Sequence record: PZ386953.1
Origin: a phage
Length of the DNA: 64,000 bases
Reading direction: 5' to 3' (one strand)
In this document: in pieces, positions 6,969 to 47,234 of the stretch
Numbering within the stretch: the first letter of the stretch is position 1
Layout of the letters: every line of letters begins with the position of its first letter
Notes under the pieces: model-generated
Told to the model about the DNA's origin: nothing
The model's input: the letters and a program-made list of their open reading frames with translations, nothing else
Database searches by the model: none
Translations under genes and position numbers: made by a program

Positions 6969-8009
6969 ATGTCAAAACCTAGTTTTCCATTAGAGATTTG
7001 GGCAGAGGAGGATCAGGTTCTGCCTAACACCCACAGACAGAACAGGCTACGCCCGATTGATGATTTGTGGAGAAAAGGTTGGGATCTTGGTCAAAAGCCC
7101 TCATGTGAAGAACTTAACTATATTTTCAATATGCTCGGAACTTGGGCAAAATATATTGCTGACGAGCAGATCCCCGCTCAAGAAGGCCGTTATCTGGTAC
7201 GCGATAATAACTTGAGTGATCTTTTGAACATTCCTGTTGCCCGTAGAAACCTTGGGATTATTACTAAGGAAGAGGCAGACGCCAGATATGTAAAAGTTAC
7301 AGGTGATACAATGACAGGCCCACTGGGTTTGCAACGTATCAACTTTAAAGCTGCCGAGACAGATAAGGCTTGGATAGAGACAACTATTGGCCCAGATAAG
7401 ACAACTCTCGACTTTGGGTTAAGTGATAATACCGGGTCGTTTGATGATGGTGGTACATCTACAGTAGATGCGTTCCGTTGGAGATTCCAGCCAACTCAGC
7501 CGGATATTAATCCAGAGTTCACTTTGATGTACCTTAACGCGATCACGGCTAACCGTGCGCTGTTGAAAGTGGTAGGCAATGTTGAAGTTGTCGATAACAT
7601 GAGGTGCAATAACCTTACTATCAGCAATACAGCAACATTCACCAACTGTAATGTGGCTAGTCAGTTGACGGCTGGGTCAGTATATGTTAATGGTGGTGCA
7701 AGTTGTGACAGCATGGTTGTAAGAAGCCAGCACTGTGTTGTCGGTAACAGAAATGTGGTGCGCTCTGTGAATGGGGTGACGGCTAACGGTAACGGTGATG
7801 TAACAATCACTATCCCGCAGACAGGTGTGCAAGACATCAGAATCGGTGCAAGACTTGTTGACGGCGTTTCTGAATCTCCAATTCGCAACGGCTACGTTGT
7901 CACAGGCTGGCATTTCGGTGACAAAAAAGAGATGCGTGGTTCAACCTACTGGGCAGGACCTTTACAAAAACTTGTAAATGGTCAATGGATCACTGTTAAT
8001 TATGCATAG
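6969..8009 (+). CDS. tail fibre / receptor-binding protein, paralog A
   Basis: 346 aa; N-terminus, central FRWRFQP motif and C-terminal LVNGQWIT shared with 9024..10067. Confidence 0.5.
   Translation: MSKPSFPLEIWAEEDQVLPNTHRQNRLRPIDDLWRKGWDLGQKPSCEELNYIFNMLGTWAKYIADEQIPAQEGRYLVRDNNLSDLLNIPVARRNLGIITKEEADARYVKVTGDTMTGPLGLQRINFKAAETDKAWIETTIGPDKTTLDFGLSDNTGSFDDGGTSTVDAFRWRFQPTQPDINPEFTLMYLNAITANRALLKVVGNVEVVDNMRCNNLTISNTATFTNCNVASQLTAGSVYVNGGASCDSMVVRSQHCVVGNRNVVRSVNGVTANGNGDVTITIPQTGVQDIRIGARLVDGVSESPIRNGYVVTGWHFGDKKEMRGSTYWAGPLQKLVNGQWITVNYA
7965..7994 (+). repeat. 30-bp direct repeat, copy 1 (3' end of fibre gene A)
   Basis: CAAAAACTTGTAAATGGTCAATGGATCACT, identical at 10023..10052. Confidence 0.8.
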
Positions 8010-37117: not shown

Positions 37118-37882
37118 TTGAAATTTATCTATAAAGAACACTACCACAAAGGTGTTGTGTGGAGTCTATTTGACGGATCTGGCGGTGCAGTCATTGACTG
37201 GGCAAAAGCTGGATATCTGTGCCTGTGCTTTAACGCAGAAGGTGCTGACCACGGCAGTTATGCAGAGGTGATCACCGATCATCCCAACATTCACTATGTG
37301 GACTATTGGATTGACCCGTGGTTCCCTCAGGAAACTTTTTGCATGTATCCGGCTCCAGATTTTATTCTTGCATTTCCTCCGTGCACGCATTTAGCGGTAT
37401 CAGGTGCTGCACATTTTAAGAAAAAGCTGGCTAAGGACCCCATGATCCAAATTAATGCTGTAAAGGATGCTCGGGTTGCGGAAGAGCTGGGAGAGATTTA
37501 CGATTGCCCGTGGCATGTAGAGAATCCTGTGGGTGTTATGTCCACACTGTGGCGCAAACCTGATTACCGTTTTCACCCTTCGGATTATGGCGGGTATTTA
37601 CCGGAAGATGATGTAAACCCATGGTTTCCTGAATTTATAGCTCCACGTGATGCCTATCCAAAAATAACTTGCGGCTGGATAGGTAATGGATTTATAATCC
37701 CAGCCACAAAACCTGTCCCGCAAATAGTTGACGCGGTTAGCGGGTATTCCATGCAACACGCCAAGCTGGGTGGAAAGAGTGCAAGAACGAAGATGATTCG
37801 AAGCCTCACACCACGTGGCTGGGCAAAAGCCGTATTCCTAGCAAACGAGCCTGTAGTAAGGAGCAGAATTAATGGGAAGTAA
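37118..37882 (+). CDS. DNA cytosine-C5 methyltransferase-like protein
   Basis: Motif I LFDGSGG, motif IV PPC, motif VI ENP in canonical order; TTG start 7 nt after AGGAGA (tool GTG start lies inside the terminator). Confidence 0.45.
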   Translation: MKFIYKEHYHKGVVWSLFDGSGGAVIDWAKAGYLCLCFNAEGADHGSYAEVITDHPNIHYVDYWIDPWFPQETFCMYPAPDFILAFPPCTHLAVSGAAHFKKKLAKDPMIQINAVKDARVAEELGEIYDCPWHVENPVGVMSTLWRKPDYRFHPSDYGGYLPEDDVNPWFPEFIAPRDAYPKITCGWIGNGFIIPATKPVPQIVDAVSGYSMQHAKLGGKSARTKMIRSLTPRGWAKAVFLANEPVVRSRINGK

Positions 37883-39950
37883 ATTTATGGCATCTGCATA
37901 CAACCGTTTCGGTGAGCCAAACCCGAAAGCAACTAAGTATAAAAGTGGGGGAAGTGTGAAACGAGACTATCGTGATGAAAAAGAAGTTGAAACTGTAGAG
38001 ACTGTTTTAGAAAATACTAAAATTGTCCCTGTCCCACAACAAAATATCGGTCTGATGGCTGCACAATATTTTGGTGTGCGATCAGCATTGTCCCAAGAAG
38101 ACGGTGTGACAGTCACTGCAACATATTTCCCATATTACGACCGCTACGGAAATCTGTCTGGTTTCAAAAAGCGTGACTGGACTATTCCTAAAGAGCAAAG
38201 GGGCCATTTCTCCGTTGTTGGCATCGTAAAGGCCAACTCCCAGATGTTTGGTCAAAAGCTGTGTGCATCTTCCAACAACCGTAAGCAGATTAACGTTTGT
38301 GAGGGAGAAGGTGATGTTATTGCAGCATGGCAGGCTGCATATCAGATACAAGTAAAAGGGATTCTCACCAACGCTAAAGCCCCGGCAAAGGTGAAGCAGT
38401 GGGCTAAAGAGGTCCAGGACGGGATCGACGCAGTTATCAACGGTGGTGATCTGGCAGGAAAACCCTGCCTGCCTTTTGTTGGAATTAACTGTGGATGTGC
38501 AAACGCAGTAGATACTTTTGCAAACAATGAGAAGTTTATCCGTAGCTATGGAACAGTTGTGCTGGCAATGGATAACGATGCAGCTAACGAGGTAGAGAAG
38601 CAAAAACACGTCATTAAAGGTGTTGAGGCCACGCACAATATCGCAGCATTTTTGATGGCTGATAACGTTTACCACGTAGAATACCCTGGTGAAGTAAATG
38701 ACCCTGACGGTGTAAAAGATATCCGAGACATGCTGAAGGCTAAAAAGCTGGAAGATATTGTCAACATGTTCCGGCACCCTGTTAAATATGTGCCTGATGC
38801 TGTGTCGGATTTAGAAGACTTCTCTATCGAGTCTTTGCGGAAAAAGACTTCCAACGGGGTAGATATCAGTGCAGAGTTCCCAAAACTGCAAAAAATGCTA
38901 AAAGGCTTGCACAAAGGGACACTTGTAATGCTTACAGGTCCATCAGGCGGCGGTAAAACAACCGTGGCTAAAAAACTGGAACACTGTATTGCAAGATACC
39001 TAATGGACCCGACATGCCCGAAGGCCGATGACTATGAAGAGGATGATCGTCTATGCATGATTCATCTTGAGGAGGACCCAGAGGAAGCAATTAACTCCTT
39101 GTATGCAAACCAGTTAGGGTTTGATGTTAAAGAGTTTGTTGAAGATCCTAGCCAGTTTTTAACTGATCAAGAACACGCAGAGATTCACCAATCATGGGCA
39201 AAAGCTGGAAAAATCAAAGTGTTCAAACATTTCGGGTCTATTCCAGTGGACGAGTTGATTACCAAGCTTAAGCAAATGGTTTGCCTGTACCATTGTCGTT
39301 ATATTGTGCTGGATCACCTGTCCATGGTAATTTCAGGGCTTAATGTTAAGGATGAGCGAAAAGAACTGGACATGGCTATGACCCAACTGGCTGCGTTTTG
39401 TAAGCAGTTTAACGTGTTTATCTTGGTGATCGCTCACCTCAAACGTACAGAGATTGTGCCCCCTAAGGACAAGGATGGTAACCCATTACCTTTCTGGTAT
39501 CCTGTGCGAAAAGAGAATTTGCGAGGATCGGCTGGGCTTGAACAGTTGAGTTGGGTAGTCATAGGTGTCGAGGCCGAAGAAATGGTGGATCGTTCTCGTG
39601 GACGTGTCCGTCTGGTAGGTCTTAAAAACCGTCCAGCAAAAACTTTAGGTATTGCTGACACTTTAGTTATGGATCCGCATACAGGTAAGTTCCATGATGC
39701 CAGTAATTGGTACTGGGACAAAGAAATGCAGATGTTTACAGACGGAGAAGGTGGGGAGGTTGTTTGGAGACCTCAGGCTATGTTTGAGGATCAGGAGCAT
39801 GCAGTTGTAGAAACACCTATGGGCAAGGTTGTGGCTGATAAGGTTGTAACACCCACTGTCAAGCCTATTGACACGCAGGAAGACCTCCAATACGATGATC
39901 CATCCTCTGATCCGGTCCCTGGTTTTGAGGATGATGAAACACCTTTTTAA
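37872..39950 (+). CDS. primase-helicase (TOPRIM + DnaB-like)
   Basis: TOPRIM-like EGEGD and DNDAANE; Walker A GPSGGGKTT; precedes the polymerase. Confidence 0.7.
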   Translation: MGSKFMASAYNRFGEPNPKATKYKSGGSVKRDYRDEKEVETVETVLENTKIVPVPQQNIGLMAAQYFGVRSALSQEDGVTVTATYFPYYDRYGNLSGFKKRDWTIPKEQRGHFSVVGIVKANSQMFGQKLCASSNNRKQINVCEGEGDVIAAWQAAYQIQVKGILTNAKAPAKVKQWAKEVQDGIDAVINGGDLAGKPCLPFVGINCGCANAVDTFANNEKFIRSYGTVVLAMDNDAANEVEKQKHVIKGVEATHNIAAFLMADNVYHVEYPGEVNDPDGVKDIRDMLKAKKLEDIVNMFRHPVKYVPDAVSDLEDFSIESLRKKTSNGVDISAEFPKLQKMLKGLHKGTLVMLTGPSGGGKTTVAKKLEHCIARYLMDPTCPKADDYEEDDRLCMIHLEEDPEEAINSLYANQLGFDVKEFVEDPSQFLTDQEHAEIHQSWAKAGKIKVFKHFGSIPVDELITKLKQMVCLYHCRYIVLDHLSMVISGLNVKDERKELDMAMTQLAAFCKQFNVFILVIAHLKRTEIVPPKDKDGNPLPFWYPVRKENLRGSAGLEQLSWVVIGVEAEEMVDRSRGRVRLVGLKNRPAKTLGIADTLVMDPHTGKFHDASNWYWDKEMQMFTDGEGGEVVWRPQAMFEDQEHAVVETPMGKVVADKVVTPTVKPIDTQEDLQYDDPSSDPVPGFEDDETPF

Positions 39951-40008: not shown

Positions 40009-42786
40009 ATGAGCATGTGGTCGTTCGACTTTGAGTCATCCGGTTTGCTGGAAGATCCAGATCTTTATTATCACTGCGGCCTGTTTAAAGAGCTGAATAA
40101 GAACCGTTTTATGCTGTTCCTTCCTCTAAATGACCGCACACACTACTCCGAAGAGGATATAGAGAAGGCTAAGAACTTTATTCTGGCAAAGAAAACTCTT
40201 CATAAAGATTTTGAAGTTCGCATAGCAGATTTTTCGGAGTTGGAAGGTTGGCTTACAGGCAATTCCGACTGGTCACCAACAGCTTTGAACTGCCATAACT
40301 GCTACAGTTATGACTTTATGCTGATGGAAAGATTATCCGGTATTCATTTTGATATGTTCCGTGATCCTAAATGCATGGGGACTATCAACGACCACCAGGT
40401 TAACCTGTTTGATACGTTGGCGATGAGCAGAATCTTGTGGCCTGATCGCCCTTTACCAAAAGGTTGTCCGGACTCTGTATTCAACCCGGTTACTAAGAAA
40501 ATGCAGCCTGTTGGTCCTCACGGCCTTATGGCATGGGGCTACGCCCTTGGTAACCAGAAAGTTCAAATTGATGACTGGCGCGATCTTCCGTTGTGGAAGT
40601 ATGTGGATCGTGTATTCGAGGACGTTATCATCCAGGAGCTGCTCTGGAAAGAGCTGGTAGCGGAATCAAAAGGTGTATTCTACGGCAAATCTGACATGCA
40701 GAACTTTATGTACGATCCAGCCAAAGAGAAGCCGAAAGGGTTCAAGAAAATCACCTGGAAGAACGCATTACGCCGAGGCATGCTGCAGCACTTCCTGATG
40801 GAGCTGCAGGCCCGTCAGGGTGTATACTTCGACATAGATGGAGCTATTGCTTTACGTGACCGTTGTGATGCGTGGATGAAAGAAATCGCTGATCGTGTTG
40901 AACCTCAACTTCCTTTAAAAGAGCTGTCAATGTCTCAGCGGCCCAAGTTCCCTGAAAAGCCGTTTAACCAAGATGGGACAATCTCCAACAATGGTTGGAA
41001 ATGGTTAAAAGATAAGCTTGGCTATCCTGTGGACATGAGTGCTTTGGAGTTCAAAGCCCCGCCTAAGCGAGCATTTACCTCCACAGGAGATGTCAGCAAG
41101 ATGGGGATAAAATGGTGTGAAGAGATGGGCTGCAAAGACCCTGATAAGATGGCTGATTTCTTGAGAGGCTATATTAAGGGCACTTCCACACCACAACCTT
41201 TACCTAAAGAGCTGATGGATCAGGCAATAAGTGATCTACAGCAGAAGCGAATGCCGGACTGCAAGATACCTATGAAAATCAGCAATCAGGACGACATTAA
41301 GCGATACCTGATCAGTGCTGGTTGGCTTCCGACAATGTGGAGAACTAAGGATGTAACTAAAGACAGCAAGAAGAAAGCTCTACCTGATGCAGATGTTGAT
41401 GCACGAGTATATGCATACATGGACGAGCTTTTAGAGTCAGAGTATTGTGACCTGATTATCAACTTCTGGAACAAAACTGATGCTAAGTTTCAGACAACCG
41501 TGCACAAGTTCCGAAGCTTTCCTAACTCCGAAAGGATTAAAAAGGAAGTATTCGGGAAAATACGTAGAAAAGCCAGAGCACTTATTACTTCTCCGCAGCT
41601 GAAAGATACGTTTGGACACCTATGCCCAAATCTTGAAAAATTGAACGGAGAGATGGCTAAAGATATCGTCTTGTGGTTATCATTGCGAAACCGCAGATCG
41701 GTCCTTGATCCAATCAAGGAGGATAAGGTTGATACTGGTCTTCTTAATCACCCACGTTTGAAGATTGACCATAAGCTTCCTGCTAAAAGTTCTGGATTAA
41801 CAAACACTTCCCGACAGAAACACAGTATTTGTGCAAACATGCCTAAACCATCTCCTAAAGTGGTTATGGGTAAAGAGATGCGCAGTCTGTGGGGTGTTCC
41901 TCCAGGATACTTTGAGATCGGTATTGACGGGTCCAACTTAGAGCAGCTTATCGGGGCTTGGGGTGCCTTTGAGTTCGACAACGGCCTGTATTACGATGTT
42001 GTAAGTAACGGGGATGCCCACCAAAACAATGCTGAGGCATATACGAAAGTAGCAGGTAGAGAGGTGTCTCGTAACGACGGTAAACCTATCACGTACGGGG
42101 TTATGTATGGGGCACAAAAAGATAAAGTTGCAGACATGCTGGATATCTCCCCAGAGTTGGGGCAAAGGGTAATCGATGCGCTTTGGGATGCCAACCCTGG
42201 TCTTAAAGGGCGTAAAGAGGATCTGGAGAAATTCTGGGAAGCAACGGGTAAGAAGTTTATCTACTCTTTTGATGGTCATGCTATCTGGACCCGATCTAAA
42301 CACTCTTTACTTAATGCATACCAACAAAATGGTGGTGCATCGTTGTGTGACTTAGTTGGGATACTCATGCACCACCAAATGGTGAAGCGTGGGTGGTACG
42401 ATGAAGGTGTTCGTCGTATTATTTATTACCATGATGAGTACCAACTTCAGGTCCCTGACACGCCTAAGTATAAGACTGTGTACACCTTCGACACAATTGA
42501 AGAATTGGAAGCATTTAAGGCAGAGCAGGAGGCCAAACTTCATGTGTTTGACGGTCATAAGTACAAAAAGGCACGCAAGGATGAAAACGGAAACGAAGTG
42601 GTTGACAGAGACGGAAACACGGTGTACGATCCTATCCTGAACGATGACGGAAAGCTTGAACTTATCTGGAGCCCTGTGGGTGAAATGGTGGTGCATTGCT
42701 TCTGGCAAGCTTCTAAAATGATGGGCGTTCCATTCCAGATCACAGGTGAATACTTGTGTGGTCGGAACTGGGGTGATTGTCACTAA
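40009..42786 (+). CDS. family A DNA polymerase with 3'-5' exonuclease domain
   Basis: Exo I FDFES, motif B K-x3-YG (RNDGKPITYGVMYG), motif C YHDE; AAGGAGA RBS. Confidence 0.8.
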   Translation: MSMWSFDFESSGLLEDPDLYYHCGLFKELNKNRFMLFLPLNDRTHYSEEDIEKAKNFILAKKTLHKDFEVRIADFSELEGWLTGNSDWSPTALNCHNCYSYDFMLMERLSGIHFDMFRDPKCMGTINDHQVNLFDTLAMSRILWPDRPLPKGCPDSVFNPVTKKMQPVGPHGLMAWGYALGNQKVQIDDWRDLPLWKYVDRVFEDVIIQELLWKELVAESKGVFYGKSDMQNFMYDPAKEKPKGFKKITWKNALRRGMLQHFLMELQARQGVYFDIDGAIALRDRCDAWMKEIADRVEPQLPLKELSMSQRPKFPEKPFNQDGTISNNGWKWLKDKLGYPVDMSALEFKAPPKRAFTSTGDVSKMGIKWCEEMGCKDPDKMADFLRGYIKGTSTPQPLPKELMDQAISDLQQKRMPDCKIPMKISNQDDIKRYLISAGWLPTMWRTKDVTKDSKKKALPDADVDARVYAYMDELLESEYCDLIINFWNKTDAKFQTTVHKFRSFPNSERIKKEVFGKIRRKARALITSPQLKDTFGHLCPNLEKLNGEMAKDIVLWLSLRNRRSVLDPIKEDKVDTGLLNHPRLKIDHKLPAKSSGLTNTSRQKHSICANMPKPSPKVVMGKEMRSLWGVPPGYFEIGIDGSNLEQLIGAWGAFEFDNGLYYDVVSNGDAHQNNAEAYTKVAGREVSRNDGKPITYGVMYGAQKDKVADMLDISPELGQRVIDALWDANPGLKGRKEDLEKFWEATGKKFIYSFDGHAIWTRSKHSLLNAYQQNGGASLCDLVGILMHHQMVKRGWYDEGVRRIIYYHDEYQLQVPDTPKYKTVYTFDTIEELEAFKAEQEAKLHVFDGHKYKKARKDENGNEVVDRDGNTVYDPILNDDGKLELIWSPVGEMVVHCFWQASKMMGVPFQITGEYLCGRNWGDCH

Positions 42787-45516: not shown

Positions 45517-45599
45517 CAAATACCTATTGTAATTTGCAGAAGGGGATGCTAAAATAGTGTCTCCTTCTATGTTGTTCAAATAAAATCGGAGATTCCATA

Positions 45600-45965
45600 A
45601 TGGAACAAATGAACGATCAAGCGTCGGTTGCGATGAACGAGCAAGAACAACCTCAAGAATTTTTCTTAGGGTTAAGTAAAGATCAAGTGTCTCTTCTACT
45701 AGTGCTTTCTTCTTTCATGGGAAGACTTCAGGAGCTCACACAACAACCAGAGGCTGAACAATTATTTCAAGCTCTGCGTGAAGAAGAAAAATATCGTCGT
45801 TTGGACTATGCCTTAGGTTGGGTAGCTCAACAACGAGATATGCTGATGGCCCTCTCTGGGACCACAAGTTTTGCAATGGGGCTGTTGGCTCAAGTTCAGG
45901 ACAAATTAATTCAAGCAGGGTTTGCACACACGGCAAACACTAACGAAGAACAAGGAGACAAATAA
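45600..45965 (+). CDS. hypothetical protein
   Basis: 121 aa; promoter-like TTGTAA-17-TAAAAT at 45527-45555 upstream. Confidence 0.4.
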   Translation: MEQMNDQASVAMNEQEQPQEFFLGLSKDQVSLLLVLSSFMGRLQELTQQPEAEQLFQALREEEKYRRLDYALGWVAQQRDMLMALSGTTSFAMGLLAQVQDKLIQAGFAHTANTNEEQGDK

Positions 45966-47191
45966 TGAGCGTTATTCAACAATTCGCTAACCCGATGAAT
46001 CCGCGTGAAACTGTTTTACTGGCTCACGGCATGATTAAACGTGTCAGCATCAAGCCTATCAAAGGTGCTGATCCTACAACAGGTATTAAAACCACTGTGT
46101 GGCAAGGTAAGAAAATTGAATCCAGCCACACCATCTCTTTACTGATTTCTGAACTGGATTCCTCTGATAACCTGCTTCAAGGTGGTGAAGAAGTTTGGAT
46201 CAGCATGGGTGATAAGCTGCTTAAACCTGGTCATCAAGACTCTGTCTCTGTTAAAATTGATGACAAGTGGGAAACCGTAACGCCGGGATGGATCGTAAAT
46301 ATTCCTTTGAAGGCAAACGAGCATAACGGTAAGACCTATTACAAAGGCTCACTGGCTAAGATGGTCAAGCTGGGTGCAGGAGAGGCTCCAGCAGCGACTC
46401 AGCAGCAAAAACAGCAACAAGGTGCACAATCACAAGGCCAGAAGCAGAAACCTCAGCAGAATGCCAATCAGGACGTTTTACGCATCTATGGTGATGTGAC
46501 TCAGATTGTTGGCAACGTGGTTACTGTTAATGACCACAAGATTGGCGAAGGTGCTATGGTTGTAACTGATGAGCAGCTTAAAGACCTGGTGGTAGGTGGT
46601 CGTGTTGCAGCCATTGTTGACAAAGACACCGGAAACATTATCAGTGGTTTCAAGGCCTATCCTCCTAAGGCAGAGAACGGCACTCAAGGCTCTGGTGGCA
46701 AGCGTAAATCCTCTTACGACCCTATCGGTGTGGAAACGGGGCATAGCATCAATGCGTTGCAGATCATCCTGGATCGCGGGTTTAAGGTAGACGACCCACT
46801 GGGCGTGGCTAAAACACTGCACGTAGTCACCATTGAGCTTAAGAAAGAGTATGCTCAAGCCACCAACCGAACTGAAGATGAAGTAGGTGCCAGTGTCGGT
46901 AATGCGGTGTTGAACGCTTGTCGCCGTATTGACAAGAAAACGAAAGTTGATGATTTTGCAGTGGCAATTACTGCAGAAGCAAAAGATGTCTTGACTAATC
47001 TAGCTGAGCCGTTGTACGATTGGATCAAGAACGGTGCTGAGTCCACTGACCATCAAGAACCTCAGGCTGCCAAACAGGAAGCAGCTCCACAGCAAAACAC
47101 TGTAGACGCTCCTCCTGTAAATGATGCGGAAGATGACCCAATGGATCAGAATCCAGCACAGTACGTCTTTGATGATGACATCCCATTTTAA
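45965..47191 (+). CDS. DNA-binding protein with SSB-type acidic C-terminal tail
   Basis: 408 aa ending ...YVFDDDIPF (E. coli SSB ends DDDIPF); Q-rich and G-rich linkers; TAATG overlap; terminator follows. Confidence 0.45.
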   Translation: MSVIQQFANPMNPRETVLLAHGMIKRVSIKPIKGADPTTGIKTTVWQGKKIESSHTISLLISELDSSDNLLQGGEEVWISMGDKLLKPGHQDSVSVKIDDKWETVTPGWIVNIPLKANEHNGKTYYKGSLAKMVKLGAGEAPAATQQQKQQQGAQSQGQKQKPQQNANQDVLRIYGDVTQIVGNVVTVNDHKIGEGAMVVTDEQLKDLVVGGRVAAIVDKDTGNIISGFKAYPPKAENGTQGSGGKRKSSYDPIGVETGHSINALQIILDRGFKVDDPLGVAKTLHVVTIELKKEYAQATNRTEDEVGASVGNAVLNACRRIDKKTKVDDFAVAITAEAKDVLTNLAEPLYDWIKNGAESTDHQEPQAAKQEAAPQQNTVDAPPVNDAEDDPMDQNPAQYVFDDDIPF

Positions 47192-47203: not shown

Positions 47204-47234
47204 ATAGCCCTGCCCGAAAGGGTGGGGCATTTTT
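47204..47234 (+). terminator. intrinsic terminator
   Basis: GCCCTGCCC-GAAA-GGGTGGGGC then ATTTTTG. Confidence 0.7.

Follow-up and report, generated by a model that had tools for sequence, protein, structure and literature searches.

A putative phage-specific SSB of rV5-like phage Murica combines a host-identical C-terminal tip with a four-helix bundle common to a wider family

The window analysed here, i.e., the whole 64,000-nucleotide stretch of phage DNA from record PZ386953.1, carries on its plus strand a 408-aa ORF (45965..47191, ATG start, TAA stop), which we refer to as the SSB-like gene. Its DNA is 100% identical to CPT_Murica192 (AKU44284.1) of Escherichia phage Murica (KT001917; Vequintavirus, rV5-like), where the product is labelled "hypothetical protein"; the orthologue is bas52_0087. 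DNA at least 90% identical to the gene is present in 116 phage records, and tblastn retrieved relatives of the protein in 359 records, nearly all from large Enterobacterales myophages, among them the Vequintavirinae, the phi92/phAPEC8 group and the phiTE/CR8 group. Nearly all copies in these 359 records are again labelled "hypothetical." The sole family match is to PHROG 4477 ("unknown function"; E = 7.5e-173, residues 1-408), which also takes in all 37 of the 37 diverse relatives that were tested.

Immediately upstream lies a 121-aa acidic ORF (45600..45965, plus strand; PHROG 7310, unknown function), the TAA of which overlaps the ATG start of the SSB-like gene by a single base (TAATG). The two genes form a unit flanked by terminator-like hairpins. 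The upstream hairpin (45538..45568, plus strand) was found by consensus scan and is listed as a terminator in the Murica record, and a weak sigma-70-like site (45527-45555, plus strand; consensus scan) overlaps it. The downstream one (47207..47228, plus strand) resembles an intrinsic terminator, with 9 pairs, 7 of them G-C, followed by a T-run, and begins 16 nt past the stop codon. The 121-aa ORF is conserved in closer relatives only, with a 25-30% identical ORF at its position in two other contigs (L009 and L010). Its label of "putative SSB" in the sister genome JLBYU08 found no support, and the ORF displays no significant similarity to its positional counterpart in a more distant contig (L007).

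The SSB-like gene is part of a replication module, a few small ORFs downstream on the same strand of genes for a 692-aa primase-helicase (37872..39950, plus strand; identified from the ORF and its annotation) and a 925-aa family A DNA polymerase, PolA (40009..42786, plus strand). The latter is annotated as DNA polymerase and matches PF00476 with E = 9.3e-8 and 31.8 bits, a score under the Pfam gathering score of 34.3. The order primase-helicase, PolA, small ORFs, SSB-like gene also recurs in a 143-kb and a 45-kb contig, in which the copies are approximately 35% identical. The primase-helicase itself terminates in an acidic, SSB-tip-like tail, ...PVPGFEDDETPF (39921-39947, plus strand), of which the last residues are FEDDETPF; DDDTPF or DNDTPF occurs near the helicase C-terminus in relatives such as Klebsiella phage DP and Cronobacter phage GAP31. 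Of the two tails, only that of the SSB-like protein is conserved in L007 and L008, both distant contigs. Aside from the label on the 121-aa ORF, the fully annotated JLBYU08 genome contains no further SSB annotation, and when E. coli SSB was used as a phmmer query, the complete ORF sets of the window and JLBYU08 gave a best E-value of 2.5, to an ORF other than the SSB-like gene. A phage replisome cannot do without an SSB, and the SSB-like protein is the only candidate here.

The protein ends in ...NPAQYVFDDDIPF, followed by TAA, and SSB of E. coli K-12 (NC_000913.3, b4059) ends in ...EPPMDFDDDIPF, followed by its stop codon. The initial annotation of this DNA had described a 408-aa ORF ending in DDDIPF like E. 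coli SSB and more than twice the length of the latter; both points hold (408 aa vs 178 aa), and comparison with E. coli ssb extends the identity to FDDDIPF, the last 7 residues of both proteins (aa 402-408 here; 47168-47188, plus strand). Within the tip, the two genes differ at the third codon position for I (ATC/ATT), P (CCA/CCG) and F (TTT/TTC); these three differences, together with the divergent residues upstream, neither support nor exclude a recent transfer of the tail from the host ssb. At the residue frequencies seen in the window's ORFs, the probability of DDDIPF arising by chance at one given C-terminus is 1.3e-8; the window contains 478 stop-to-stop frames of 50 aa or longer, over which the expectation totals approximately 6e-6.

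An AlphaFold2 model, for which a 24-sequence alignment served as input, indicates three folded domains connected by disordered segments (all coordinates on the plus strand). The N-terminal domain (45965..46384, aa 1-140) is all-beta (pLDDT ~80-89, pI 8.8) and is predicted to adopt an OB fold, the feature that the initial annotation had proposed looking for; its conserved residues are G22, H55, W78, G82, G108 and K123-T-Y-Y126. A disordered Gln-rich linker (46385..46471, aa 141-169; 13 Q in 29 residues, pLDDT <50) leads to an optional middle beta-barrel (46472..46672, aa 170-236; pLDDT ~80-86) with five strands, for which the predicted order, b1-b2-b3, a short helix, then b4-b5, is OB-like. After a Gly-rich basic linker (46673..46714, aa 237-250, ENGTQGSGGKRKSS, pLDDT <50) comes a four-helix bundle (46715..47035, aa 251-357; pLDDT >90), followed by a disordered acidic tail (47036..47188, aa 358-408; pI 4.05, pLDDT <50). 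The initial annotation had placed acidic, Gln-rich and Gly-rich linkers ahead of the tip; the acidic one is indeed there, but those rich in Gln and Gly are internal inter-domain linkers, and the stretch directly before the tip (aa 358-401) is acidic, Pro/Gln-rich and Gly-free. Also missed in that layout was the third folded domain, i.e., the four-helix bundle, which is the one to carry both substitutions known to permit escape from DRT10 defence (see below).

No other part of the protein is conserved as well as the bundle, which is the signature of the family, with G255, G259, H260, N263, G312 and L316 invariant. The escape positions within it, D252 (nt 46718-46720) and Y351 (nt 47015-47017), are found in 23 and 19 of the 24 aligned sequences, respectively. 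In the AlphaFold2 model, D252 immediately precedes helix 1 and Y351 is close to where helix 4 finishes, such that an up-down bundle topology would place the ends bearing these two residues side by side. The predicted bundle has no specific structural relative.

Sequence searches provided no relatives outside of the phage family. Against Pfam, only sub-threshold noise was returned (PIN_9, DCX2) and no family; against PDB sequences, neither phmmer with the whole protein nor hmmsearch with N- and C-domain profiles detected a relative, and the hits were noise (a salivary D7 protein, T4 lysozyme, a copper chaperone). With hhalign, the N-domain profile matched E. coli-type SSB with a probability of 0.13%; given this value and the lack of a Pfam match, membership in PF00436 was rejected. 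The plan of bacterial SSB proteins (that of E. coli, and the phage copies in HK75 and HK620) is recognizable, with a predicted N-terminal OB fold, a long disordered linker and an identical set of last 7 residues; the disordered linker and the acidic free end of D-D-D-[IL]-P-F type are those of canonical SSB, and the charge layout is SSB-typical (N domain pI 8.8, tail pI 4.05). In contrast to bacterial SSB, the OB domain is without sequence or profile similarity to its counterpart, and the 408-aa chain accommodates two additional folded domains, with nothing in the 178-aa protein corresponding to the four-helix bundle. The SSB of phage HK620 depends on its last six residues for stimulation of Sak4, its cognate recombinase (PMC5928155).

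A protein built from an N-terminal OB fold and a helical domain also brings to mind RecO, and the SSB-like protein could on these grounds be a recombination mediator or annealing protein with no role as a replicative SSB. We regard this as quite improbable. Only the OB part of the protein matches RecO, which scores no better there than plain SSB or RPA OB folds, and with the helical domain alone, no RecO was present among the 60 matches listed. No Pfam match to RecO was obtained, the zinc-finger region is lacking, and no sequence match to any annealase family was found. Moreover, RecO reads the SSB tip and carries none of its own, and the recombination genes of the phage are located elsewhere in its genome.

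To define the extent of the family, the profile of the helical domain was run against 1.84 billion representative proteins, resulting in 130 clusters. The clusters have a median length of 277 aa and carry the bundle at approximately residues 130-245; members of at least 340 aa account for 14 of the 130 clusters, making the 408-aa form with its extra barrel a minority. From these lengths and this bundle position, an arrangement of OB domain, bundle and tail is the ancestral and common form of the family. The middle barrel is missing from the short members and is dispensable.

The C-terminal tail is likewise a property of the family at large. All 24 homologues compared, which extend down to approximately 30% identity, retain P407 and F408. 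Among the 130 cluster representatives, 100 end in P-[FW] (IPF in 53, LPF in 21, VPF in 10, LPW in 6), with an acidic run preceding this end in 94 of the 100, and the exact DDDIPF end is found in 25 of the 130; most clusters with other ends terminate within or just past the four-helix bundle. Some members match the E. coli SSB terminus over 11-12 residues, three of them over 11 (PPMDFDDDIPF). With P-[FW] ends in 100 of 130 clusters, the tail is a feature that defines the family and is under selection, matching the general consensus of bacterial SSB tips. The notion that DDDIPF is a coincidental ending on a protein unrelated to DNA metabolism, for which one could invoke only the absence of a sequence-family assignment, therefore has a vanishingly small probability: in addition to the low expectation for the window, tail conservation across approximately 130 clusters, the predicted OB fold and the conserved synteny with replication genes all speak against it, and the conservation data have already refuted it.

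A twin of the protein has recently been characterized. Bas52_0087 (QXV84166.1), from Escherichia phage RudolfGeigy (MZ501102), is identical at 403 of 408 positions, D252 and Y351 included; both proteins are 408 aa long, are encoded in the same gene order and end in FDDDIPF, making this the same protein in a sister phage. In an April 2026 preprint (bioRxiv 10.64898/2026.04.29.721553), Bas52_0087 was described as SSB-like, with a tip of FDDDIPF, and as necessary for triggering of the DRT10/UG17 reverse-transcriptase defence. The same preprint reports that (i) Bas52 escapes this defence via the D252V or Y351C substitution in Bas52_0087, (ii) provision of the wild-type protein in trans strengthens DRT10 defence, (iii) expression of the protein alone neither triggers DRT10 nor affects host viability, and (iv) overexpression of SbcB (ExoI) weakens DRT10 defence against Bas52; (v) competition with, or displacement of, SbcB was proposed for Bas52_0087. 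With expression of Bas52_0087 alone being insufficient to trigger DRT10, the link of the protein to ExoI is therefore indirect.

The window protein is the Murica orthologue of an already-described protein and, with 403 of 408 residues identical, the finding has thus already been described; the core observation being in the preprint, the value added here consists of family-level anatomy and side findings. The preprint model comprises two OB folds and a disordered C-terminus, and assigns both escape positions to a "putative oligomerization interface" (bioRxiv 10.64898/2026.04.29.721553). It differs from the model presented here, in which D252 and Y351 are predicted to belong to a separate, very confidently modelled four-helix bundle and the second barrel is optional. 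Our analysis adds that the escape positions are situated in a third folded domain, that this bundle marks a much wider family, and that the second barrel can be dispensed with. Literature on retrons Eco2, Eco7 and Kva2 that names both Vequintavirinae and SSB was also considered; the SSB-like protein is not its topic.

Taken together, the SSB-like protein is probably the replicative SSB of rV5-like phage Murica, from a phage-specific and non-canonical family (PHROG 4477). The alternatives offered by the initial annotation, a phage SSB or a mimic of the SSB tip, are supported by its place in the replication module, the retention of gene order in distant contigs, the lack of another SSB candidate and the family-wide conservation of the tail; the preprint reads Bas52_0087 alike and provides a genetic tie to ExoI/SbcB. 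Mechanistically, the mildly basic N-terminal domain, predicted to be an OB fold, would bind ssDNA exposed by the phage replisome of primase-helicase and PolA. The four-helix bundle may mediate self-association or the docking of a partner; its functional importance has been demonstrated genetically by the D252V and Y351C escape mutants of Bas52. The long disordered acidic tail would display a free C-terminal FDDDIPF identical to the tip of host SSB, and phage ssDNA coated by the protein could thus engage readers of the SSB tip, i.e., host clients such as ExoI/SbcB and possibly also the phage polymerase, as in T7. By perturbing host ssDNA metabolism, the protein would then serve as the infection signal that DRT10 (UG17) defence requires, a role shown for Bas52_0087 and to be expected for the Murica protein.

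Which reader the tail principally addresses is a matter on which the evidence points in two directions. ExoI/SbcB is a client of the SSB tip, and the exact identity of the tip, together with the SbcB dosage effect, suggests a host client such as ExoI as the reader. The tail of the primase-helicase, on the other hand, suggests an internal role by analogy with phage T7, in which an OB-fold SSB specific to the phage (gp2.5) has an acidic tail ending in Phe and is co-encoded with a family A polymerase (gp5) and a Toprim-DnaB primase-helicase (gp4) that bears an acidic Phe-terminated tail as well. These two roles are not mutually exclusive.

In the stronger form of the T7 analogy, the tail would dock mainly on the phage family A polymerase, and perhaps on the helicase, in the manner of the gp2.5 and gp4 tails, with identity to the host tip being secondary or dual-use; such coupling would leave room for an SSB function, and we consider it a plausible reading, albeit one that falls short of even odds. 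The Murica module has the T7 composition of Toprim-DnaB fusion, PolA and SSB, in combination with an aromatic-ended acidic tail on the SSB-like protein and a similar one on the primase-helicase, the latter also seen in the helicases of phages DP and GAP31. In T7, the gp2.5 tail anchors on a basic patch at the polymerase front, and a DTDF peptide mimicking the gp4 tail occupies the gp2.5-tail site in the structure used for modelling (PMC12339929). The family A polymerase would by analogy be a candidate docking partner for both Murica tails. Against this reading, the tail goes beyond "acidic plus Phe" in being the exact host tip, with a match over 11-12 residues in some members; moreover, contigs L007 and L008 conserve the tail of the SSB-like protein but not that of the helicase, and a host client is what the influence of SbcB dosage on DRT10 in Bas52-infected cells points to.

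Taken to the opposite extreme, the emphasis on host clients would make the protein a decoy, acting mainly by sequestering the partner proteins of host SSB or displacing them from it, chiefly the 3'-5' exonuclease ExoI/SbcB, thereby protecting phage DNA ends or disabling host repair, with ssDNA binding secondary. The identity of the tip with that of the host would fit such a role, as would the proposed SbcB competition or displacement and the weakening of DRT10 defence against Bas52 by SbcB overexpression (bioRxiv 10.64898/2026.04.29.721553); in contig L008, a short family member directly follows a gene resembling T7 gp5.9, a RecBCD inhibitor. A pure decoy, however, would need neither a conserved OB domain nor a fixed place in the replication module, and would not be expected to be the one SSB candidate where the phage encodes a replisome itself; furthermore, expression of the protein alone affects neither host viability nor DRT10. 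We hence deem this explanation unlikely and, along with the RecO-like mediator and chance resemblance, less likely than a replicative SSB with a tip-bearing tail.

The family represents a structurally distinct candidate type of SSB, distributed over 359 phage records and approximately 130 clusters and labelled "hypothetical" nearly throughout; its recognition would permit correct annotation in hundreds of phage genomes that serve therapy and biocontrol. Phage SSB proteins are emerging as frequent infection signals for reverse-transcriptase defences, as for retron Eco8, DRT9 and now DRT10. The OB domain, the helix bundle and the tip together offer a three-part target with which to probe the way in which a phage protein bearing the host tip disturbs ExoI and further clients of SSB.

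In many relatives, the tip is not terminal. The 423-aa proteins of Bas49, Bas50 and Bas54 continue for approximately 15 residues beyond IPF, APVGLQYGKSRIHAL. Canonical SSB-tip pockets bind the terminal carboxylate, and because the extension after IPF buries this group, a free host-type tip is not strictly required in the lineage. Variants with and without the 15-residue extension hence provide a natural system for studying the need for a free C-terminal Phe. Relative to Murica, Bas54 contains an insertion of approximately 640 bp that directly follows the Phe codon and separates it from the original TAA; sequence identity falls to 92.6% just upstream of the junction, compared with 98.4% downstream. 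This insertion encodes the extension and an overlapping endonuclease (PHROG 1035, "endonuclease VII"). The insertion looks like a putative homing cassette targeting the conserved DNA that encodes the SSB tip. The APIGLQY extension as a pure by-product of homing-endonuclease insertion was considered; as HK75 SSB and the SSB of one Vibrio phage possess the extension without a downstream endonuclease, this simple version is therefore incomplete.

A broader scheme, which we offer as speculation and hold to be rather doubtful in its entirety, would unite these elements. Instead of merely copying the host tip, the FDDDIPF tail would be a portable "SSB-tip module" with which rV5-like phages equip both the SSB-like protein and the primase-helicase, linking the whole replisome to host SSB clients and taking over or neutralising ExoI and others; DRT10-type defences would sense this takeover at the family-specific bundle. 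An endonuclease cassette would home to the conserved tip-encoding DNA and thereby move among the ssb, SSB-like and helicase genes of phages that are not related, with extensions of the APIGLQY... type as the footprint left behind.

Homologues of the N-terminus of the Bas54 endonuclease were also observed in other settings. In Cronobacter phage GAP31, the homologue overlaps the end of the primase-helicase gene, which terminates in DFDNDTPFAPIGLQYANHAIYAL. A match in phage Mt1B1_P17 is annotated beside a canonical ssb, and matches in some Vibrio phages have a map position near the ssb of a related Vibrio phage.

In a relative of Murica, the counterpart of the SSB-like gene (window 45965-47191, plus strand) carries extra DNA directly after the codons for its C-terminal FDDDIPF. 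Relative to window positions 47186-47191, ~640 bp (195-832 of locus L018, MZ501093) are inserted in the gene of phage Bas54, with the junction lying exactly after the final Phe codon and before the TAA stop. The insert lengthens the protein by 15 aa (APVGLQYGKSRIHAL) and contains an overlapping gene for an endonuclease assigned to PHROG 1035 ("endonuclease VII").

An acidic SSB-tip-like tail, ...PVPGFEDDETPF (window 39921-39947), also forms the C-terminus of the phage primase-helicase (gene 37872-39950). DDDTPF or DNDTPF occupies the matching position in the helicases of Klebsiella phage DP and Cronobacter phage GAP31; the helicases encoded on L007 and L008, both distant contigs, lack an SSB-tip-like tail. 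In GAP31 (L023), the helicase gene overlaps at its end with a homologue of the endonuclease's N-terminal part, which follows directly on the helicase's ...TPF+APIGLQY extension, and further matches to this N-terminal part adjoin canonical ssb genes in other phages. The Bas54-type insert is probably a homing cassette aimed at the DNA encoding the SSB tip.

Extensions past the tip also occur in the canonical SSBs of phage HK75 (L019) and Vibrio phage 1.243.O (L020), for which the C-termini read DDDIPF+APVTLPFPRHAIHAI or DDDIPF+APVGLQFGKKFMHVI; no endonuclease gene lies downstream of either SSB gene. In these two proteins, the carboxylate of the terminal Phe is buried by the extension, which may be either a footprint of homing or a motif with a function.

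Within the SSB-like family, proteins P0040-P0042 of the 24-sequence alignment (A1) combine an N-terminal OB domain divergent from that of P0011/P0034 with a Gln-linker and a middle barrel that match the P0011 group exactly. The family is mosaic at the level of domains, and such a combination indicates that recombination took place at the linkers.

Immediately upstream in the window, an acidic 121-aa ORF (45600-45965) and the SSB-like gene are translationally coupled via TAATG. Its annotation as a "putative SSB" in the sister genome JLBYU08 is unsupported by Pfam, PHROG or the sequence itself. Since contigs L009 and L010 each contain, in the matching position, an ORF with 25-30% identity to it, the 121-aa product may be a conserved partner. 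In the 45-kb contig L008, a 54-aa gene (7837-8001) resembling T7 gp5.9 (RecBCD inhibitor family PF25708) is present, the last base of which is the start of the short family member P0056.

The PolA gene of the window (40009-42786) is a single unbroken ORF of 925 aa; its JLBYU08 counterpart (L001, 2715-5821) is split into two separate CDSs, and the Bas52 annotation (L022, bas52_0076) joins two pieces. Together, these three arrangements suggest an intervening element within PolA of some relatives.

Finally, approximately 16-21 MG0656xx records titled "Campylobacter phage", with C. jejuni given as host, are 98.5-100% identical to the present SSB-like gene from an rV5-like phage of E. coli, and this host attribution looks doubtful.
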